From an uncultured bacterium (lineage in GTDB: Bacteria; JAUVQV01; DATDCY01), in contig CAZEOK010000003.1 of assembly GCA_964513745.1 (NCBI GenBank), positions 3,150-67,149 of the forward strand: a stretch of DNA of 64,000 bases, in the 5' to 3' direction. The translations under genes were made by a program, and so were the position numbers. The notes beneath the pieces were generated by a model. The model was not told the DNA's origin and did no database searches. It was given only the letters and a program-made list of their open reading frames with translations. Every line of letters starts with the position of its first letter. The first letter of the stretch is position 1. Below are positions 33,517-43,756 of the stretch, one piece after another.

Positions 33517-34365
33517 TCAGCCGCTGCCCGGCCGGGCAGCGGCCTGCGTCTGCCGCAGCGCCGGGACTGCCTCGCTTATCGCGAACAGCGCGGCTGCAGC
33601 CACGACGATCGACGGCCCCGCCGGGGTGTCCCAGCGCAGAGAGCCCCAGAGCCCGGCCCCGACGGCCGCGCAGCCGAGCAGCGCGGCCGCGGCGGCCATC
33701 GCCTCCGGTGAGCCGGCGAAGCGCCGGGCGGCGGCGGCGGGGATGATCAGCAACGCGGTGATCAGGAGCATGCCGACGACCTTCATCATCAGCGCAACGA
33801 CCACGGCGAGGAGCAACACAAAGGCCGACTGAATCAGGCCGACGCGGACGCCCTCGACGCGGGCGAGCTCCTCGTGAACGGTCATGGCGAGCAACGGCTT
33901 CCAGAGGGCGGCCAGGGCGGCGAGAGCCGCGATGCCGCCGCCGTAGATCCAGAGCAGATCCCCCTGCGTTACGGCGAGGACGTCGCCGAAGAGGTACGAA
34001 ATGAGGTCGACGCGTAGCGTTTCGAGGAACGCAACGGTCACCAGGCCAAGCGAGAGGGCCCCGTGGGAGAGGATGCCGAGGATTGCGTCTTCCGGGAGCC
34101 GCCCGCGGCGCTGCACGGCGAGCAGCAGCAGGGCGACCGCCGCGCAGACGGCGAAAACGCCGAGGGCGGGGTTCACGTGCAGTGCGAACCCGAGCGCCAC
34201 GCCCAGCAATGAGGCGTGAGCCAGCGTGTCGCCGAAGTACGCCATCCGCCGCCAGATGACGAATGAGCCGAACGGTCCCGCAACCAGGGCCACGCCGACG
34301 CCGCCGGCCAGCGCTCTGCAGAGGAAATCATCCACCGTGCCGGTCTCCGATGCCGCAGGATTCAT
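33517..34365 (-). CDS. znuB: zinc ABC transporter permease
   Basis: YFGDTLAHASLLGVALG and LLITALLIIPAAAARRF motifs of ZnuB/ABC-3. An alternative GTG start at 34335 would shorten the overlap with znuC. Confidence 0.9.
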   Translation of the reverse strand: MNPAASETGTVDDFLCRALAGGVGVALVAGPFGSFVIWRRMAYFGDTLAHASLLGVALGFALHVNPALGVFAVCAAVALLLLAVQRRGRLPEDAILGILSHGALSLGLVTVAFLETLRVDLISYLFGDVLAVTQGDLLWIYGGGIAALAALAALWKPLLAMTVHEELARVEGVRVGLIQSAFVLLLAVVVALMMKVVGMLLITALLIIPAAAARRFAGSPEAMAAAAALLGCAAVGAGLWGSLRWDTPAGPSIVVAAAALFAISEAVPALRQTQAAARPGSG

Positions 34366-35137
34366 CGCGCTCGTGGCGGTGGGCGTAGAGAGCGAAGCCC
34401 GGGAGGCTCGTCGGGAACAGGCGCAGGTACGCCGGGTCGCTGGAGACGGTCAGAGGCGCCCCGGTGCAGCAAATCGTGCGATTGAGGCAGACGACGTGAT
34501 CCGTGGAGCTCATCACGAGGTGCAGGTCGTGCGAGACCATCAGGACGCCGCAACCGTGTTCGTTGCGGATACCCGTTATCAGTGCGAAAAGCTCCTCCTG
34601 TCCCGCGAGGTCCACCCCCTGGCTCGGTTCGTCCAGGACGAGCAACCCGGGCTTCCGGAGCAGCGCGCGGGCCAGGAGCACGCGCTGCATCTCCCCACCG
34701 GAGACCGACTGGATCGGGGTGTGCAGCGTCCGGGAGGCGTTGACCCGTGCAAGGACCTCTTTGACGCGATCCCCGGCGTCCGGAGCCGCCATCATGAGAA
34801 ACCGGCGGACGGTGATCGGGAGCGCCGGGGCGACCGTGAGCCGCTGCGGCATATAACCGATGCGCAGCCCGGGTTCCAGCCATACCTCACCGCGATCAGC
34901 GCGGAGCAATCCCAGCGCAACGCGCAGCAAGGTCGTTTTCCCCGCGCCGTTCGGTCCGATCAGCGTCACGATCTCCCCGGCGCCGACTTCAAGCCCGACG
35001 TTTTCGAGGACCGGCGCGGCGCCAAGGCTCATCGAGATCCCGCGCAGGGAGAGCAGCCTGCGGCCGGATCCCCTCGGGTCGGCGGGCGGGCTGGTCAACC
35101 GTGTCGTGAAGATATCGCTCCCGGACGTCTCATGCAT
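34328..35137 (-). CDS. znuC: zinc ABC transporter ATP-binding protein
   Basis: Walker A GPNGAGKTT, signature SGGEMQR, Walker B LLVLDEPSQGVD. Confidence 0.9.
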   Translation of the reverse strand: MHETSGSDIFTTRLTSPPADPRGSGRRLLSLRGISMSLGAAPVLENVGLEVGAGEIVTLIGPNGAGKTTLLRVALGLLRADRGEVWLEPGLRIGYMPQRLTVAPALPITVRRFLMMAAPDAGDRVKEVLARVNASRTLHTPIQSVSGGEMQRVLLARALLRKPGLLVLDEPSQGVDLAGQEELFALITGIRNEHGCGVLMVSHDLHLVMSSTDHVVCLNRTICCTGAPLTVSSDPAYLRLFPTSLPGFALYAHRHERDESCGIGDRHGG

Positions 35138-35183
35138 CGCGGTCGTCCCTCCACCGTGGCATGCCGCAGTGTATCATTCACCA

Positions 35184-36143
35184 ATGAGCACGGCACCAGA
35201 AGCAGCCCGCCCCACCAGGCGTCGTTCCTGGACGAGGGCCGCCGTTGTCATCTCGCTTTTTCTCGCGAGTCCCGTCGCTGCGTTGGCCGCCCCGCGGGTC
35301 GTCGCGACCGTCAAGCCGCTGCACTCGCTGGTTGCGGGTGTCATGACAGGGATCGGGGCGCCGGACCTGCTCATCCGGGGCGGCGGCTCACCGCACACCT
35401 ACAGTCTCAATCCGTCGGCGGGCCGGTTGCTGGAGCGCGCGCAGGTCATCTTCTGGATCGGCGGCTCGCTGGAGGCTTTCATGGAGAAACCCCTGGCAGC
35501 TCTCGGGGCGAACGCGCGCATCGTCACAGTGACGCAGGCGCCGGGCATCGTGCTGTTGCCCGCGCGGGCGGGCGGGCGCTGGGACGAACCTGACGGCCAT
35601 GAAGGTTCCGAGCACGGCCATGCGACGCAGGACGGCCACCTGTGGCTCGACCCGGCCAACGCGCGCGTTATCGCACGGCTGGTGGCGGACGTGCTGGGTC
35701 AGGCGGACCCGGAAAACCGGGGGCGCTACGCGGCCAATGCCGACGCGCTGGTCTCCCGCATCGACGCGCTCGATTTCAGCTTGAAGACTGCGCTCGGCCC
35801 CGTGCGGGACGTCCCATTCGTCGTCTTCCACGACGCCTATCAGTATTTCGAGAAGCGTTACGCATTGCGCGCGGTCGGTTCGATCGCGGTGAGCCCGGAG
35901 CGCGCGCCTGGCGCGCGGCGGGTGCAGGAGATCAGGGACAGGATCAGGAGCCTCGGGGTGCGCTGCGTTTTCAGCGAGCCGCAGTTCTCGTCGGCGATCA
36001 TCGGCACGCTCCTCGAGGGGACGAACACCCGCGCGGGCACGCTCGATCCGCTCGGCGCCGGATTGCCCGCCGGCCCGGATGCCTATTTTACGCTGATGCA
36101 CGCTCTTGGCTCCACGCTCGCGACCTGTCTGGGTGCGCCCTGA
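35184..36143 (+). CDS. znuA: zinc ABC transporter substrate-binding protein with His-rich loop
   Basis: Signal peptide. VATVKPLHSLV, GGGSPHTYSL, HLWLDP, VFHDAYQYF, FSEPQF. His/Asp/Glu loop DEPDGHEGSEHGHATQDGH. Confidence 0.9.
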   Translation: MSTAPEAARPTRRRSWTRAAVVISLFLASPVAALAAPRVVATVKPLHSLVAGVMTGIGAPDLLIRGGGSPHTYSLNPSAGRLLERAQVIFWIGGSLEAFMEKPLAALGANARIVTVTQAPGIVLLPARAGGRWDEPDGHEGSEHGHATQDGHLWLDPANARVIARLVADVLGQADPENRGRYAANADALVSRIDALDFSLKTALGPVRDVPFVVFHDAYQYFEKRYALRAVGSIAVSPERAPGARRVQEIRDRIRSLGVRCVFSEPQFSSAIIGTLLEGTNTRAGTLDPLGAGLPAGPDAYFTLMHALGSTLATCLGAP

Positions 36144-36324: not shown

Positions 36325-38055
36325 ATGGGGCATCGAGCGTCATCCGGGCGGTACAAGAAAATCCTGTTGAGCGGGGTGTTCGGCCCCTTCGGCGTCGACG
36401 ACGACTACGGGCGGCGCGAGAATATCATGGAGCTGTTCCACAACCAGGTCACCCGCGAGCAGGGCGTCGCGTCGTTTCGCTTTCACCACCGCTCCTTCGG
36501 GCTCTATTTCCTGGCGGAGAATGTAGATGCCGACGTGACGGTGCTGGACTTCCCGTCAAAGGAGCGTTTCGAGCGCGAGCTGCGCAATGGCTATGACATC
36601 GTGGGGATCTCCTTCATCACCCCGAACTTCGTGAAGGCCCGCGAGATGGCGCGCCTGGCGCGGCTGCACGCCCCGGGGGCCGTCGTCCTGCTCGGCGGCC
36701 ACGGGGCGGCGATCGAGGGCGTGGAGCGGCTCATCGACTGCGATCACGTGATCAAGGGCGAGGGCATCGGCTGGTTGCGGCGCTTCCTCGGGCAGGATCC
36801 CGACGCGCCGATCGTCCACCCGGTGCTGCCGAGCACGGAGCGTCAGAGCATCCTGGGCGTGCCGCTGACCGGCGTCTGCTCGAGCCTGCTCGTGCCCGGG
36901 CTCGGCTGCGTCAACGGCTGCCGCTTCTGCAGCACCACGCACTTCTTCGGCAAGACCTACACCTCGTACCTGCCCACGGGGCGCGCGATCTTCGAGAACG
37001 CGCTGCGCATCGCCGACGCGCGCGGCACCGACACCTTCTTCGTGATGGACGAGAACTTCCTGAAGGACACCCGGCGCGCCCGGGAGCTGCTTGCCGAGAT
37101 GGAGCGCGAGCGGCGCTTCTTCCGGTTCCAGATCTTCTCGTCGGCCGAGGCGATCCTGGCTTTCGGCCTGGACGACCTGGTGCGGCTCGGCGTGAACTTC
37201 ATCTGGATGGGAGTGGAGACCAAGAGCCGGGAAGCGAATTTCGCCAAGAACCAGGGTGTGGACCCACAGAGGCTCGTCCGGGAGCTGCGCGACCGCGGGA
37301 TCAACGTGCTGGTCTCGGGGATCCTGTGCATGGAGCACCACACCCGGCAGAACATTCAGGAGGACATCGACCACCTGATCGACCTGGAGGCGGACTTCAC
37401 GCAGTTCATGCTGCTGACGCCGCTGCCGACCACCGCGCTCTACCAGGAGAAGAAGGCGAGCGGCCTGCTGCGGCAGGAGCTGCCGTACGAGGAGTGGCAC
37501 GGGCAGAAGATGCTCAACTACAAGCACCCTCACTTCCCCGGCGATGCGGCGGAGCGCTGGATCACGCAGGCTTTCCGCCAGGAGCACGAGGAGAACTCGA
37601 GCTCAATCTATCGGGTCACGGACACGGCCCTGCGGGGCTACCTGTACCTGGCGGGCCTGAGCCGCCGGGACGCCTGTCTCGCGGCGCGTCTCGAGCAGGC
37701 CCGCGAGCGGGCGGCGGAATACGCGCTGATACTGCCCGTGATCGAGCGACATCCGGTCAACGGGCTGGAGTGCGAGCGCGCCGTCGATCTCTCCCGGCGG
37801 ATGAAGGGTGCTCTGGGCGCCCCCCGGCTGCGAGAACGGGCCTTGCGGCTCGCGGTCCGGCTCTTCGCGGCGCGTTGGCGGTGGCGGGTGCGCTGGTTCG
37901 GGGACGACATCCAGCCCGCGACGCTGGTTATCCGGTACCCCGCGGGCCGGGCAGCACGAGGCGTCGCCCGGCCCGCAGCGTGTCCGCTGCCGGAGGCGCG
38001 CGAGACCCTGCAACGGCAGCAAGCGGCGGCGATCGGGGTTCAGGTGACTAGCTAG
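36325..38055 (+). CDS. B12-binding domain-containing radical SAM protein (class B)
   Basis: N-terminal B12-like domain (DIVGISFITPNF ... VVLLGGHG). CxxxCxxC cluster motif CVNGCRFC at 36907-36930. Long C-terminal extension. Confidence 0.85.
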   Translation: MGHRASSGRYKKILLSGVFGPFGVDDDYGRRENIMELFHNQVTREQGVASFRFHHRSFGLYFLAENVDADVTVLDFPSKERFERELRNGYDIVGISFITPNFVKAREMARLARLHAPGAVVLLGGHGAAIEGVERLIDCDHVIKGEGIGWLRRFLGQDPDAPIVHPVLPSTERQSILGVPLTGVCSSLLVPGLGCVNGCRFCSTTHFFGKTYTSYLPTGRAIFENALRIADARGTDTFFVMDENFLKDTRRARELLAEMERERRFFRFQIFSSAEAILAFGLDDLVRLGVNFIWMGVETKSREANFAKNQGVDPQRLVRELRDRGINVLVSGILCMEHHTRQNIQEDIDHLIDLEADFTQFMLLTPLPTTALYQEKKASGLLRQELPYEEWHGQKMLNYKHPHFPGDAAERWITQAFRQEHEENSSSIYRVTDTALRGYLYLAGLSRRDACLAARLEQARERAAEYALILPVIERHPVNGLECERAVDLSRRMKGALGAPRLRERALRLAVRLFAARWRWRVRWFGDDIQPATLVIRYPAGRAARGVARPAACPLPEARETLQRQQAAAIGVQVTS

Positions 38056-38813: not shown

Positions 38814-39134
38814 CTAGATGCGCGCGATGTACTGCTTGATCTTTTCCCAGTCCTCCCGGCCCATCCGGGTGAACCTCACCCCCATGCCCATCATCGCCTG
38901 ACGCCAGGAGACAACGCCTTCACCCACGATCGGCTTGTCGGAGATCTCCGGCGGGACCGTCATGCGGAACTTGACGGTCTTGCCGAGCTCCAGCGGATTG
39001 ACCGTGTCGATGAACAGCCCGCCGATGCTGATGTCGGAGATCCTCGCGTTCAGCACGCTGCTGTCGCAAAGGTACTGTATCTCCGCCACCAGGGGAGCGC
39101 GCAGGTGCTTCCGCTTGTCCTCGCCGCGAGTCAT
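38814..39134 (-). CDS. PilZ domain-containing protein
   Basis: Start MTRGEDKRKHLRAPL at 39134. RxxxR (RKHLR) and DxSxxG (DISIGG) c-di-GMP-binding motifs. Confidence 0.75.
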   Translation of the reverse strand: MTRGEDKRKHLRAPLVAEIQYLCDSSVLNARISDISIGGLFIDTVNPLELGKTVKFRMTVPPEISDKPIVGEGVVSWRQAMMGMGVRFTRMGREDWEKIKQYIARI

Positions 39135-39210
39135 GGTCGGCCGCAAGAATACCAGTATTTTCCCACCGAAGCTTGCGCGGTCTCCAGCGCGGTAGTATAT
39201 CGGACGGGGT

Positions 39211-40164
39211 ATGCAGAGCGGCCAGTCGCACAAGATTGAGCGGATCCGGCAGAGCCTGAGCCTCGTCAAGCCGATCGTCACGCTCTCCGTCGGCGTGGTG
39301 CTGCCGGTGCTGCTGTCGACGGCGGTCGGCATCGTTGCCATTGTCGCCGGCGAGAGCTCGCTCACGCTGATCCTCGGGATCCTCGTGGTTTCCTTTACGG
39401 CCGCGGCCATCGGCGGGGCCGTGATCCTCTACGTGCTCCTGGGCAGGCGCGCACGGCTGGCGCGGTTGCAGTCGGACCTGCTGGCCAACGTCACCCACGA
39501 CCTGCGCACGCCGCTCGCCGCGATCCGGGTCTACGCGCAGACCCTGCAGTCAGGGCTGTTGCAGTCCGATCCGAGGCGCGCCGAGGATTGCCTGCGGACC
39601 ATCGTGCGCGAAACAGAGTGGCTGGATGCGATGATCGATCGGGTTCTGAGCTGGCGGACGGCGGCGAAGGACAGGGGACTCGCCGATTTGCAGTGCGGAT
39701 CGATCCGGGCCGCCGTGGACGAGGCAGCGGCGCGGTTTTTGCGGATGGTCCCCCCCGACGAGGTGCAGATGAGCTACAGCTTCGAGAGCGCGAACACAGT
39801 CCGCCACGACGCCCGGGTCCTCGAGCAGGCGATCCTCAACCTGCTGGTCAATGCCGCCAAGTACTCGGCGCCGCCTAGGAAAATCACGCTGGCAGTCCGG
39901 GATCAGGGGACGTGGGTGGTGGTCAGCGTAGAAGACAACGGAATCGGCATCCCCGCCGGGGAGGTCCGCAGGATCTTCGAGCCGTTCTACCGCGTGAACC
40001 GTCCGGCCGCAAAAATATCGGGGGCTGGCCTCGGGCTGGCGATCGTGCACCACGCGGTCAAGGCCCACGGCGGGAAGATCACCGTGGACACCAGGGAAGG
40101 CGCGGGCAGCCGTTTCTCGATCTTTCTGCCCGCGTGCGCCGCGATCGGGGAGGGCAGTGGATGA
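39211..40164 (+). CDS. sensor histidine kinase (two TM segments, no sizeable periplasmic loop)
   Basis: H-box NVTHDLRTPL, N-box NLLVNAAKY, G-boxes DNGIGIP and GAGLGLAIV. Confidence 0.85.
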   Translation: MQSGQSHKIERIRQSLSLVKPIVTLSVGVVLPVLLSTAVGIVAIVAGESSLTLILGILVVSFTAAAIGGAVILYVLLGRRARLARLQSDLLANVTHDLRTPLAAIRVYAQTLQSGLLQSDPRRAEDCLRTIVRETEWLDAMIDRVLSWRTAAKDRGLADLQCGSIRAAVDEAAARFLRMVPPDEVQMSYSFESANTVRHDARVLEQAILNLLVNAAKYSAPPRKITLAVRDQGTWVVVSVEDNGIGIPAGEVRRIFEPFYRVNRPAAKISGAGLGLAIVHHAVKAHGGKITVDTREGAGSRFSIFLPACAAIGEGSG

Positions 40165-40886
40165 AGCGCGGAGAAAACGCGTCTCCACGGTCGCCGCAAG
40201 CCGGTGGTGAGATCATCCTTGTCATCGAGGACGACCGATCGCTGCGCGAAGCCCTGGCCATGAACTTCCAGTTGCGCCGGTACCGGGTGCTGACCGCCGG
40301 GGACGGGGAGGCAGGGGTGCGACTCGCCTTCGACGAGCGGCCGGACCTGATCGTGCTGGACCTGATGCTCCCGGGCTTCGACGGCTTCGAGATCCTGGGC
40401 CAGCTGCGGGAGAAGGAGATCGACGTCCCGGTCCTCATCCTGTCGGCCCGGGGGCAGGTGTCGGACAAGGTGAACGGGTTCCGCCTCGGGGCCGACGACT
40501 ACGTCACGAAGCCTTTTCAACTGCCGGAGCTCATCGCCCGGGTGGAAGGGATGCTTCGCCGTCGGCGCCGTCAACGCGCGTCGCTGGGCGCGATCACGTT
40601 CGGTGAGATCGTCGTCGACCCCGCTGGGCGAACGGTGCGGCGCGCGGGGGGCGAGGTGCCGCTGCTCGCGAAGGAATTCGACCTGCTCTTGCTGCTGGCC
40701 GGCAATCCGGGGCATCCCTTCAGCCGCGAGACCATCCTCGACCGCGTGTGGGGGTGGGGCTTCGAAGGCACCACCCGCACGGTCGACAACTACATCCTCG
40801 CATTGCGCCAGAAGCTTGAGACGGACCCGGCGCGGCCTCGCCACATCACCACCGTTCGCCAGGTCGGCTACCGGTTCGATCCCTGA
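40161..40886 (+). CDS. OmpR/PhoB family response regulator
   Basis: ATGA overlap with the kinase gene. Receiver domain (LIVLDLMLPG, DDYVTKPF) plus winged helix (TVDNYILALRQKLE ... VGYRF). Confidence 0.9.
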   Translation: MKRGENASPRSPQAGGEIILVIEDDRSLREALAMNFQLRRYRVLTAGDGEAGVRLAFDERPDLIVLDLMLPGFDGFEILGQLREKEIDVPVLILSARGQVSDKVNGFRLGADDYVTKPFQLPELIARVEGMLRRRRRQRASLGAITFGEIVVDPAGRTVRRAGGEVPLLAKEFDLLLLLAGNPGHPFSRETILDRVWGWGFEGTTRTVDNYILALRQKLETDPARPRHITTVRQVGYRFDP

Positions 40887-40992: not shown

Positions 40993-41307
40993 ATGCCAGT
41001 GTACGAATACGAGCACGTCGCGAAGAAGTGCGCCCGGGGGAAGCGCTTCGAGGTCCGTCGGGGGATCGATAGCGAGCGCCTGAGCGTCTGTCCCGACTGT
41101 GGCCAGGAAGTGCGGCGGGTGTTTTCGCCGGTCTTCGTGAACACCCCCCGGACGGACAGTGACCTGAAAGGGCTGGGATTCACCAAGCTGGTGCGCCGGG
41201 ACAAGGGCGTCTACGAGAACGTCACCGCAACCGGAGGAGAAAGCCGGATCTGGGATGCGAACAGGCCGGAGACAAGTCCGCACCTGCACAAGAAAATCCG
41301 GGACTGA
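40993..41307 (+). CDS. FmdB-family zinc-ribbon-like protein with degenerate first knuckle and extended tail
   Basis: MPVYEYE N-terminus after an AGGAGGAG RBS. CPDCG second knuckle. The first CxxC is reduced to a single Cys. Confidence 0.65.
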   Translation: MPVYEYEHVAKKCARGKRFEVRRGIDSERLSVCPDCGQEVRRVFSPVFVNTPRTDSDLKGLGFTKLVRRDKGVYENVTATGGESRIWDANRPETSPHLHKKIRD

Positions 41308-41326
41308 CGGCGGCTGTCCGTCTGTC

Positions 41327-41345
41327 CCCGTGCTGACTGCGGGGT
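41327..41345 (+). repeat. REP-like element, truncated copy (18/19 match to the 31-nt consensus)
   Basis: cccgtgctgactgcggggt. Pairs as an inverted repeat with 41386-41411. Confidence 0.7.
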
Positions 41346-41385
41346 AAGAATGTTTTGACCGATCAGGCTCTGGCTCTTGTCGCTC

Positions 41386-41411
41386 GCGACAGGACCCCGC
41401 AACCAGCACGG
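41386..41411 (-). repeat. REP-like element copy (25/26 match, inverted orientation)
   Basis: Reverse complement is ccgtgctggttgcggggtcctgtcgc. Confidence 0.75.
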
Positions 41412-41472
41412 AAATGAAGTTTCCTGAAGGGCGAGGTCCTGCGCTCCGGGTTCTCGATTGGTGACGCGTGCC

Positions 41473-41946
41473 TTATTTCGCCTGGTGCAGTGGCATCCCG
41501 CACTTGCAGGTGCCGGGCTTGTCGGAGACCGTGTTGCAGCCGCAGGAACCGCCGCAGTTGCAGAAATAGATCCCGGTGCCCTCGAGGTTGATCCTCTTGA
41601 CCGGCTTGCCGCAGCCGCACTTCGTGTGGTCATTCGGGTCGATCTTGCAGGCGCAGGTCGGCCCACAGGTACAGACCAGCGCGGTGTTGCCCTCCGTGTA
41701 GACGACGTGACCGCCGGCCAGTTCCTTGCCGCAACCGCACTTCCCCGGCTTCAAGGAGACGGTGTTGCATTTGCACTCCGGGCCGCAGTCACACCAATAG
41801 ATGGCGGCGCTCACCTGGGCCGGGCCCATGCCTTCCATGGAACCGTGTCCCTGATGCATCCCCTGGTGCATGCCGCCACCCGGGGCGCAGGCGCCGAGGA
41901 CGAATGCGGCGGTGATCAGTGCGAGTACTGCTGCGAATCGTTTCAT
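41473..41946 (-). CDS. cysteine-rich lipoprotein with Met/His linker and three Cys6 repeat modules (family not recognised)
   Basis: Signal peptide with lipobox LGAC (Cys20). GGGMHQGMHQGHGSMEGMG linker. C-x-C-x3-C-x-C-x9-C-x-C occurs three times with identical spacing. Confidence 0.75.
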   Translation of the reverse strand: MKRFAAVLALITAAFVLGACAPGGGMHQGMHQGHGSMEGMGPAQVSAAIYWCDCGPECKCNTVSLKPGKCGCGKELAGGHVVYTEGNTALVCTCGPTCACKIDPNDHTKCGCGKPVKRINLEGTGIYFCNCGGSCGCNTVSDKPGTCKCGMPLHQAK

Positions 41947-41994
41947 ACCATCCCTCCCCTGTTGGTTGCCAGGACCGCTCGAGTCAAGTCGACG

Positions 41995-42324
41995 TCACGC
42001 CCCGAACGAGCAGACGTATTCGGCGATGCCGCTCTCGACCTCTATGTCGAAGGCGGAGTTCGCGCCCACCGGGAACGAGGTGCCAGCGGCGTACGGCTTC
42101 CACGCGCTCTCGCCCTTGAGGCGCACGCGGCAGGAGCCCGCGACGATCGCCATCACCTCGGCGGCGCCGGTCGTGAAGTGGAACGAGCCGGGGTAGATCA
42201 GGCCGATCGTCTTTTTCGATCCATCGGCGAGATACACGGTGTGGCTGACGACCTTCCCGTCGAAATAGACGTTGGCCTTGGTGACGACGGAAACCCCGTC
42301 GAACTTCTCCGGTGCACTGGGCAT
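41995..42324 (-). CDS. ppnP: pyrimidine/purine nucleoside phosphorylase (DUF1255, YaiE)
   Basis: 109 aa. KANVYFDGKVVSHTV ... GSFHFTTGAAEVMAIVAG cupin-like signature. Confidence 0.85.
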   Translation of the reverse strand: MPSAPEKFDGVSVVTKANVYFDGKVVSHTVYLADGSKKTIGLIYPGSFHFTTGAAEVMAIVAGSCRVRLKGESAWKPYAAGTSFPVGANSAFDIEVESGIAEYVCSFGA

Positions 42325-42352
42325 GGCTTTCTCTCCGTTCTCCCGAGGGTTG

Positions 42353-43756
42353 CTATTTCCGGTCCAGGTTCAGGAATTCCGCGATCGCCGTCGCCGACGC
42401 CGGCAGGTCCACCGGGCGGTTCTGCAGTTCTTTTTTCGGTGTCACCTCGTACTCGGCGGGCAGGCTGCCCTCGAAGTACTTCTGCTGGAAGTCGGCGAAC
42501 TTGAGCTGGTGCGCGGTGGAGTCGACCACCACGCGCATCCCCGGCTCGATCACCTTCGCGCCGAGCGCGGCAGCCAGCCCGGCGACTCCCTCGCCGCCTT
42601 GCGTGCAGATCACGTGGCCGTGGCGGTTCGCGGTGAGCATCGCGTCCATGATCTGCTGCTCGCTGACCTCGACGACCGCGAAACGCTCGCGGAAGTGCTC
42701 CTCGACGAGGCGGCGGACTTTCGGGAAGGAGACGGGATTGCCGATCATCGCGGCCTGGGCGACGCTCGAGGTCACCTGCACCGGCTCGTAGGTGCCGCTC
42801 TTCCTCCAGAGGTAGACCGGGTTGGCATGGCGGCTCTGCACGCCGACGAGCAGCGGCAGCTTCCCGATCATCCCGAGGCGCTGCAGGTCGAGGAACCCCT
42901 CCATGACGGCGGTGACGTTGCCGGCGTTGCCGATCGGCACGACCACCGCCAGGTCCTCGGTGCGCCACCCGGCGTCCATCGCCACCTCGTAGGCGTAGGA
43001 CTTCTGCCCGTTGATCCGCACCGGGTTCTTGGAGTTGAGCAGGAAGACCTGGTAGTCGCGCGAGAGCTCCTCGACGATGCGCATGCAGTCGTCGAAGACG
43101 CCCGGGACCTGGATGACGGTGGCCCCGCTGCCGAGCGGCTGGGAGAGCTGCTGCGGCGTGACCTTCCCCGCGGGGAGCAGCACAACGGACTTGACCGTCC
43201 CCTTGGGCAGGTAGGCGAGATAGAGCGCGGCGGCGGCCGAGGTGTCGCCGGTGGAGGCGCAGATGCCGAGCACGTCGCGCACCCCCCAGCGCTTGATGGC
43301 GTGGTTCAGGTACGAGATCGCCGAGGCCATGCCGCGGTCCTTGAAGGAGGCCGAGGGGTTGAGGCCGTCGTACTTGATGAAGAAGGGGGCGCCGACCGAC
43401 GCAGCGAGATCGGCGTTGGCCGGGATCACCGGTGTGTGCCCCTCGCCGAGCCAGACGACGTCTGCCGGGGGGACGCAGGGGAGGATCAGCTCGTGAAAGC
43501 GGAAGATCCCTTTGAGCGAGGCCGGCTCGGGAGCCAGCGCCCGGTAGGCGAACAGGCGCCGCCAGAATTCGCCGCTTCTGCCTTTGAGCGTGTCGAAGGC
43601 GAGGTCGCGCAGCGAGAGCAGGCCGCCGCAGGCCGGGCAGGTGTAGGCGAAGCGCTCGATCGGGTGGCGGGCGGCGCAGGAGACGCACTCGTAGACGACG
43701 TCGCCCCGGTAGGTGGGGACGATGGCGTCGCGGACGTCGGCGGGGAAGTCGATCAT
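42353..43756 (-). CDS. thrC: threonine synthase (long form with N-terminal zinc ribbon)
   Basis: CVSC...CPACGG ribbon. PLP-lysine motif NPSASFKDRG. ASTGDTSAA and GNAGN motifs. AAGGAGGT RBS. Confidence 0.9.
   Translation of the reverse strand: MIDFPADVRDAIVPTYRGDVVYECVSCAARHPIERFAYTCPACGGLLSLRDLAFDTLKGRSGEFWRRLFAYRALAPEPASLKGIFRFHELILPCVPPADVVWLGEGHTPVIPANADLAASVGAPFFIKYDGLNPSASFKDRGMASAISYLNHAIKRWGVRDVLGICASTGDTSAAAALYLAYLPKGTVKSVVLLPAGKVTPQQLSQPLGSGATVIQVPGVFDDCMRIVEELSRDYQVFLLNSKNPVRINGQKSYAYEVAMDAGWRTEDLAVVVPIGNAGNVTAVMEGFLDLQRLGMIGKLPLLVGVQSRHANPVYLWRKSGTYEPVQVTSSVAQAAMIGNPVSFPKVRRLVEEHFRERFAVVEVSEQQIMDAMLTANRHGHVICTQGGEGVAGLAAALGAKVIEPGMRVVVDSTAHQLKFADFQQKYFEGSLPAEYEVTPKKELQNRPVDLPASATAIAEFLNLDRK

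Follow-up and report, generated by a model that had tools for sequence, protein, structure and literature searches.

A stretch of 64,000 nucleotides from an uncultured bacterium (assembly GCA_964513745.1, contig CAZEOK010000003.1, positions 3,150 to 67,149), referred to here in its entirety as the window, encodes on the minus strand at 41473-41946 a Cys-rich protein that belongs to a conserved family of small proteins. Its main part is built from three homologous modules, each with six Cys in identical spacing (Cys6 modules), which follow a signal peptide and a Met/His-rich linker. The modules appear to be derived relatives of HMBD (PF19335), and a role for the protein as a periplasmic thiolate metal buffer, store or chaperone, with Cu(I) as the most likely metal, is the explanation that we favour, if only modestly.

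The lipoprotein, its Cys6 modules and their conservation

Translation of the window reproduces exactly the protein of 157 aa quoted in a sequence-only reading of the same DNA. A word-indexed search with a cut-off of E<=1e-3 returned 430 homologues, the best non-self matches being 75-83% identical over their full length, and 299 clusters at 50% identity were recovered when 1.84 billion cluster representatives were searched exhaustively with a profile. Owing to this conservation among homologues a spurious open reading frame (ORF) is excluded, and the Cys-rich ORF is a real, conserved gene. The best 150 of the 299 clusters are all small proteins of no more than 218 aa, and none of them was seen to be fused to a transporter or an enzyme.

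The window protein contains 19 Cys, at position 20, at 52/54/58/60/70/72, at 92/94/98/100/110/112 and at 129/131/135/137/147/149, which makes 19 of the 138 residues of the mature protein, a fraction that is exceeded by classical metallothioneins. The regular expression C.C.{3}C.C.{9}C.C finds exactly three matches (residues 52-72, 92-112 and 129-149), so that the three modules of identical spacing described in the sequence-only reading are present at the Cys positions given there. In composition-preserving shuffles one module motif was obtained in 130 of 200,000 cases; since even a single motif is this rare, three modules in register are not attributable to chance. Alignment of the modules with hhalign gave probabilities of 99.1% for modules 1 and 3, 97.1% for 1 and 2, and 96.4% for 2 and 3, and on these comparisons the modules are homologous repeats of ~37-40 residues each. 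Neither CxxCH nor CxxCxxC was found in a motif scan of the window protein, in agreement with the earlier statement that heme motif and ferredoxin spacing are absent.

All 18 module Cys, to which the sequence-only reading had attached a candidate metal-binding role, are kept among homologues. An alignment of 45 diverse homologues shows no substitution at 15 of them and conservation of at least 90% at the remaining three; His80, Asp106 and Gly150 do not vary in it either, and Met151 reaches 90% or more. Of 270 collected proteins, 248 contain modules with the exact Cys6 spacing, 539 in all. Variants with four Cys (CxxC...CxxC or CxC) were found in ~35 family members; C1, C4, C5 and C6 are retained in every module variant, and C2 and C3 are gained or lost together. 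A sub-clade (P0049, P0052, P0054, P0055, P0063, P0064 and P0067) has a degenerate module 1, IYWCGSATDGPCSGISTTPGTCPDGKPM, in front of intact modules 2 and 3; this 3-Cys unit retains only the equivalents of C52, C60 and C70. Eight 4-Cys modules in the 270 proteins contain CxxCH, which was seen in module 1 of P0172, P0184, P0211, P0226, P0238, P0265 and P0268 (YVCPDCH, YTCDKCH). Such distant members, which are periplasmic proteins, might wrongly be taken for small cytochromes, or some of them may truly bind haem.

An AlphaFold2 model built from the 45-sequence alignment predicts a core of short strands and coil (predicted local distance difference test, pLDDT, 88-95; predicted template modelling score 0.66), in which a beta-hairpin at residues 77-92 connects modules 1 and 2, and no helix is present except the signal peptide. 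With Foldseek, the best match of the full model in the PDB had an E of 1.9, and the model of a single module gave no match, the module being too small.

The N-terminus has the features of an exported lipoprotein. A rule-based check of MKRFAAVLALITAAFVLGAC recognised an n-region with K/R, a hydrophobic core of 13 residues and then LGA before Cys20, and MKRFAAVLALITAAFVLGA followed by C20 satisfies the lipobox [LVI][ASTVIG][GAS]C as a pattern. A reading of the signal peptide of the window protein revealed no twin-arginine motif. The lipobox pattern is also present in 115 of the 249 family members having an N-terminus. As far as patterns tell, the signal peptide and lipobox at Cys20 proposed earlier are correct, and the window protein is probably exported by the Sec route and anchored by its lipid in the periplasm.

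The Met/His tract noted earlier is likewise present, from residue 23 on (GGGMHQGMHQGHGSMEGMG); it is shared with near relatives only and is not a trait of the whole family. The AlphaFold2 pLDDT falls below 50 at residues 32-42 of this linker. His, Met and Cys together make up 13% of 222 family linkers, and bacterial proteomes typically have ~5-6%. The composition is bimodal, with at least 15% of these residues in 75 of the 222 linkers and none in 79. Other clades carry tracts of the HPCPNCPHGGP, CGPCMMW or MTPAMTPAM type, and many members have only a plain signal peptide. Because tracts of the Met/His, CPxCP and MTPAM types arose independently, this recurrent enrichment in soft-metal ligands argues for the linker as a metal-capture arm, which would be accessory and not essential.

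Relatives are encoded in 133 stretches of one-genome-per-species contigs, and the host assignments given here refer to the best 80 of them, every one of which is a metagenome-assembled genome (MAG). The nearest relatives, with 78% identity, belong to Candidatus Rokubacteria, from which the window, with a GC content of 68%, probably also derives. The other hosts are Nitrospirota and Thermodesulfovibrionales, Desulfobulbia, Desulfuromonadales, Holophagae and other Acidobacteriota, and Verrucomicrobiota. Several MAGs have two or three paralogues on separate contigs (loci L014/L016/L080 in one Thermodesulfovibrionales MAG; L059/L074; L071/L076), which suggests lineage-specific expansion.

Relation to HMBD and to other Cys-rich proteins

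The window protein has no significant match in Pfam, NCBIfam or the sequences of the PDB, and HMBD is not reported even at E<=10. A search of the PDB with the module profile found no solved relative, all database names of family members are 'hypothetical protein', and the literature on the motif, on periplasmic metallothioneins and on HMBD was found to contain no description of a Cys6-module family. One paper citing PF19335 was set aside because it deals in fact with the MxCxxC ferredoxin-like domain. The earlier statement that the protein falls into no named family is right for the protein as a whole and has to be amended for its modules, which can be tied to HMBD.

HMBD is a domain of ~28 residues of the form YxCPMHPE...PGxCPxCGMxL, located N-terminally in Cu/Ag P-type ATPases of the SilP, LpCopA and CueA type and in some adaptors of the CusB type belonging to resistance-nodulation-division (RND) systems; its Pfam model comprises 28 positions and has a gathering threshold of 23.6 bits. 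In distant members of the family, a 4-Cys unit, e.g. YVCPDCHVTALQAGKCPKCGKDM, takes the place of module 1 and aligns position for position with IYWCDCGPECKCNTVSLKPGKCGCGKEL of the window protein. PF19335 was matched by 6 of 83 distant members (best E=7.2e-9), and two of them, P0238 with 35.9 bits and P0211 with 23.8 bits, exceed the threshold at the position of module 1. The flanks of both loci contain no metal exporters. The family consensus of module 3 reaches 21.4 bits (E=2.4e-4), under the cut-off. For a direct comparison of profiles, eight classical HMBD sequences were collected from plasmids by tblastn, including SilP, heavy-metal P-type ATPases and an RND periplasmic adaptor. Module 3 aligned with them at a probability of 94.3% (P=1e-7) over the PGxC(x)CGMxL half, 17 columns only, and the most HMBD-like part of this module is the tail 'PGxCxCGMxL'. 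Module 1 aligned from Y-x-C on with a 4-residue gap (P=0.0035), and module 2 gave no match.

Since distant members carry PF19335 in place of module 1 and module 3 aligns with HMBD, the Cys6 module is best read as a derived HMBD or zinc-ribbon unit whose first knuckle was enlarged by an inserted CGPx that brought two extra Cys and whose second knuckle was shortened from CxxC to CxC. Both kinds of unit have the same order of two knuckles and share the aromatic-x-C, PGxC and CG(M)xL elements. Their ligands differ: the classical set is CPMH...CPxCGM, i.e., three Cys, one Met and one His, whereas the modules here read CxCGxxCxC...CxCG(K/M), with six Cys, no His in knuckle 1, four inserted residues there, and CxC for CxxC in knuckle 2. 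In addition, classical HMBD is an appendage of transporters, whereas three tandem copies form a free-standing secreted protein in this family. As the Pfam threshold is not reached, the window protein is, on these comparisons, a derived relative and should not be filed as a member of HMBD. The order of its elements recurs in an RND adaptor of Fibrella, where a lipobox is followed by HSEHDGHDHAG and then by the HMBD sequence YTCPMHPQ.... In SilP and LpCopA a poly-His run stands beside TCPMHPEIR (PMC6387184).

Metallothionein models gave sub-threshold matches. Metallothio_PEC matched the window protein with E=6.5 and 7.6 bits (cut-off 31.8) and 5 of the 83 members with a best E of 1.5e-4, a sub-threshold result that reflects their Cys composition, and Metallothio_5 matched the consensus module with a sub-threshold E of 0.018. 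The spacing CxCxxxCxC of knuckle 1 is shared with plant type 1/2 metallothioneins, in which such motifs form thiolate clusters, and with the C-terminal motif of CopY, usually written CxCx4CxC. There is no sequence homology to these proteins beyond the Cys pattern, and they are cytosolic. In PMC7558416 the CopY motif is given as CxCxxxCxC and is described as binding either one Zn(II) or a pair of Cu(I).

The idea of a small thiolate-rich protein is also familiar from Csp1/Csp3, SmtA/BmtA and MymT, whose many Cys thiolates serve in the buffering or storage of Cu(I) or Zn(II). Csp1 is exported too; it takes the twin-arginine translocation (Tat) route, and Csp proteins are four-helix bundles lined with Cys, whereas the window protein has a Sec signal with lipobox and is predicted to consist of beta strands and coil. 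A copper storage protein of the Csp type was ruled out on the predicted core, which is made of short strands and coil and has no helix. SmtA and MymT differ in being cytosolic, and the window protein has no Pfam match to any of these proteins. Its identification as a c-type cytochrome was rejected for lack of CxxCH, and as a ferredoxin or iron-sulfur protein for lack of CxxCxxC, of a Fer4 match and of a twin-arginine motif. By these comparisons the family is new to models, structures and the literature, while its general kind, a Cys-rich metal-binding protein or chaperone, is known and is built here from what appears to be a derived HMBD.

Proposed function, gene neighbours across the family and rival explanations

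Neighbouring genes were surveyed at 83 distinct loci by all-against-all clustering of the ORFs within +/-4 kb, with Pfam counts on 141 flanking ORFs. No universal neighbour emerged over the 83 loci, the clusters obtained being antisense shadow ORFs and generic families of ATP-binding cassette (ABC) proteins and histidine kinases. The sole function-specific recurrence, seen at ~10 of the 83 loci, is a group of genes for NosL, a protein of ~108 aa, a MacB/FtsX permease and an ABC ATPase together with a divergent SCO1/SenC gene; its members were confirmed by Pfam and by custom hidden Markov models. The group is found at L004, L011, L013, L031, L038, L041, L042, L051 and L084, and in part at L067. 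At L011, L013, L031 and L042 a SCO1 gene on the opposite strand is followed by the series Cys-rich gene-NosL-small protein-MacB-ABC, an arrangement that looks like an operon. At L084, from Nitrospirae, the Cys-rich gene stands between two NosL paralogues (L084:5177-5650 and L084:6448-6948), the second of which is divergent (CDNCGM..., E=6e-9 to the NosL profile). The group thus occurs in varied arrangements and in more than one phylum.

The function of NosL as a Cu(I) chaperone is well established (PMC6530538). NosL and SCO1/SenC share the compartment of the Cys-rich protein, and NosL is a lipoprotein too, whereas folds and motifs are unrelated, which makes them neighbours and candidate partners and not homologues. 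The linkage is biased towards certain lineages and yet rearranged between them, and this rearrangement speaks for a functional connection with copper trafficking in the genomes concerned. With regard to the co-occurrence with metal genes raised in the sequence-only reading, copper genes adjoin the Cys-rich gene at these loci, and the family has no universal neighbour.

The ~108-aa protein, encoded between NosL and the MacB-type permease, is conserved and membrane-anchored, has no Pfam match and carries the motif LTDL.L..EARYTRHPS..D....FQD.P...EHFP.G. It is a putative, uncharacterised component of what may be a copper-handling ABC system.

Metal binding, the identity of the metal, the stoichiometry and the physiological role are what we infer in the following scheme. 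The six thiolates of each module would hold one or more soft metal ions in a thiolate-bridged site analogous to the CxCxxxCxC of CopY and plant metallothioneins. Cu(I) would be the most likely metal, with Zn(II) or Cd(II) in second place. Ions would be picked up by the Met/His arm, where there is one, and passed on to the core. The protein might then act as a buffer or store of metal in the periplasm, or as donor or acceptor in a copper-trafficking route that in some lineages would take in NosL, SCO1/SenC and the MacB-type ABC transporter. A metal store or chaperone fits because of the link to HMBD, the ligand-rich linkers, the NosL/SCO1/MacB neighbours and the RND adaptor of the same layout. 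A bolder version, which is possible and decidedly tentative, would place a polynuclear Cu(I)-thiolate cluster (e.g., Cu2-Cu4 with six thiolates) in each module. The protein would then be a Sec-exported, lipid-anchored periplasmic 'metallothionein', a copper store with an expanded HMBD fold, loaded by its Met/His (or Cys/Pro) arm and exchanging copper with NosL, SCO1 and the MacB-type ABC system for the assembly of cuproenzymes in soil and sediment phyla that are for the most part uncultured.

Several observations weigh against a metal store or chaperone. Much of the family lacks the Met/His tract, and 79 of the 222 linkers have no His, Met or Cys at all. The window protein and its three modules taken singly stay below every Pfam threshold, the match to HMBD is limited to 17 columns of the second knuckle and does not extend to module 2, and HMBD itself is biochemically poorly characterised. 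Housekeeping or unrelated genes surround ~88% of the loci, including the window and the Rokubacteria relatives, and most cases of NosL/SCO1 linkage come from Desulfuromonadales-like genomes. Furthermore, the periplasm of aerobes is oxidising, and six Cys per module could equally make three disulfides.

It is conceivable, and in our judgement unlikely, that the modules are zinc ribbons and that Zn(II) has no more than a structural part in them. Each zinc would then be held by four Cys, the two inserted Cys would pair as a disulfide or make up another structural site, and the protein would have a different job, for example as a periplasmic scaffold, in partner binding or as a component of the envelope. 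A two-knuckle layout and short strands are predicted for the modules, and the variants with four Cys in ~35 members resemble ordinary ones. These variants match Zn_ribbon_6, Zn_Ribbon_1, Zn_ribbon_LapB and A2L_zn_ribbon, weakly and below threshold, and the Foldseek search of the PDB returned no match. The core Cys kept in all variants are C1, C4, C5 and C6, most neighbourhoods are unrelated to metal, and a ZnuABC-type locus is situated 5.3 kb away in the window. However, four unrelated genes lie between that locus and the Cys-rich gene, and the flanks of the Rokubacteria relatives contain no Znu match. Structural zinc also gives no reason for two additional, exactly spaced Cys per module to be kept in 539 modules, for linkers rich in His, Met and Cys to have been gained repeatedly and independently or for the linkage to NosL/SCO1, and the nearest named domain, HMBD, accompanies exporters of Cu/Ag.

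A metal-free protein knotted by disulfides, three per module and nine in total, serving for example as inhibitor, adhesin or structural protein, is quite improbable. The even number of six Cys per module, Sec export to the periplasm, the aerobic life of some hosts (Nitrospira, Rokubacteria) and the lack of a sequence or structure match to any solved metalloprotein would suit it. On the other hand, the modules appear to be homologous to a metal-binding domain, CxC and CxCxxxCxC are hallmark motifs of thiolate clusters, and the conserved His80 and the methionine of CGM are typical extra ligands. The odd number of Cys in the 3-Cys module 1 of the sub-clade (C52, C60, C70) prevents full pairing, and many hosts are strict anaerobes (Thermodesulfovibrionales, Desulfobulbia, Desulfuromonadales). 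Finally, a role in periplasmic redox chemistry or electron transfer, with each module housing rubredoxin-like Fe(Cys)4 sites or iron-sulfur clusters and with haem c perhaps bound by the CxxCH-bearing distant members, is suggested by the rubredoxin-like two-knuckle motifs, the weak match to the rubredoxin-type Zn_ribbon_LapB model, the eight CxxCH modules and the metal-respiring Desulfuromonadales among the hosts, but is very improbable given that the window protein lacks CxxCH and ferredoxin spacing, its signal is of the Sec type instead of the twin-arginine type expected for export with a pre-assembled iron-sulfur cluster, no Fer4 or rubredoxin match was obtained in Pfam and no redox partner was seen among the neighbours.

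The locus in the window and significance of the family

The coordinates of the gene, of its parts and of the surrounding features are collected in the table. The Cys-rich gene lies downstream of hpt-thrC-ppnP on the minus strand and is convergent with an FmdB-type gene and with a histidine kinase and OmpR-type response regulator pair. A gap of 48 bp separates it from the stop codon of ppnP and holds its Shine-Dalgarno sequence. A scan of 41200-42500 found neither a sigma-70 consensus promoter nor an intrinsic terminator. In the Rokubacteria relatives the block hpt-thrC-ppnP-Cys-rich gene is conserved, and the downstream side is variable.

Table. Features of the Cys-rich gene, its surroundings in the window and the ~108-aa protein of the NosL/SCO1/MacB group
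Feature	Coordinates	Strand	Remarks and basis
Cys-rich lipoprotein, coding sequence	41473..41946	minus	157 aa; TAA stop 41473-41475; translation, homologues, conserved Cys
Shine-Dalgarno GGAGG	41953..41957	minus	6 nt 5' of ATG; sequence read
Signal peptide and lipobox (LGA before Cys20), residues 1-20	41887..41946	minus	Sec-type; Cys20 is the predicted lipidation site; pattern only
Met/His-rich flexible linker GGGMHQGMHQGHGSMEGMG, residues 23-41	41824..41880	minus	position by motif read; AlphaFold2 disorder
Module 1 Cys motif CxCx3CxCx9CxC, C52-C72, within unit IYWCDCGPECKCNTVSLKPGKCGCGKEL	41731..41793	minus	motif; hhalign homology to module 3
Beta-hairpin connector AGGHVVYTEGNTALV, residues 77-91	41674..41718	minus	contains invariant His80; AlphaFold2 strands 77-85, 88-92
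Module 2 Cys motif, C92-C112	41611..41673	minus	DPxD instead of SxxPG; Asp106 invariant; motif and hhalign
Module 3 Cys motif, C129-C149, then G150, M151	41500..41562	minus	motif; hhalign to HMBD
FmdB-type Zn_ribbon_8 gene	40993-41307	plus	Pfam, 37.3 vs 34.4 bits
ABC-3 permease of ZnuABC-type locus	33517-34365	minus	
ABC ATPase of ZnuABC-type locus	34328-35137	minus	
Divergent ZnuA	~35187-36143	plus	His-rich loop DEPDGHEGSEHGHATQDGH
B12-binding radical SAM enzyme	36325-38055	plus	between Znu locus and two-component pair
PilZ-domain protein	38814-39410	minus	between Znu locus and two-component pair
Threonine synthase-like PALP enzyme	42353-43756	minus	N-terminal CxxC...CxxC zinc-ribbon-like extension YECVSCAARHPIERFAYTCPACGG
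~108-aa protein	L031:6966-7298		
~108-aa protein	L042:7054-7386		
~108-aa protein	L041:3654-3980		
~108-aa protein	L038:7363-7671		
~108-aa protein	L051:9491-9802		
~108-aa protein	L004:13478-13807		

The two-component pair reported earlier at about 0.6 kb ends at 40886, 587 bp from the 3' end of the Cys-rich gene; of five Rokubacteria relatives, just one (L007) has such a pair close to the gene, and it was rejected as a regulator on that account. The convergent FmdB-like gene was also rightly described as degenerate: it scores above the Pfam threshold, its first knuckle has a single Cys (HVAKKCARGKRF) and the second is intact (CPDCG). It is not consistently linked to the family and is no conserved partner; among the Rokubacteria relatives it recurs only at L088. 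A Zn_ribbon_8 gene is located 1.5-2.5 kb from a family member at L001 and L088. The ZnuABC-type locus extends over 33517-36143. Between this locus and the two-component pair, the genes for the radical SAM enzyme and the PilZ-domain protein showed no tie to the Cys-rich gene. The extension of the PALP enzyme has a sub-threshold match to DUF7129 (24.6 vs 30 bits).

Periplasmic copper handling is known mostly from Met/His sites (CusF, CopC, PcoE/SilE, PCuAC) or from proteins with one or two Cys (SCO1, NosL), and the described cases of dense thiolate storage are metallothioneins of the cytosol and the helical Csp proteins. If the function proposed here is correct, a widespread secreted protein of Rokubacteria, Nitrospirota, Desulfobacterota, Holophagae and Verrucomicrobiota with 18 conserved Cys in three HMBD-derived modules would represent a different structural solution, and HMBD would gain a tractable free-standing model protein. 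The hosts are uncultured, which makes their biology hard to reach; the protein is small, should be easily expressed and could be tested in vitro. It would give a role to a conserved 'hypothetical protein' of phyla that are important for the cycling of nitrogen and metals in soil and groundwater.

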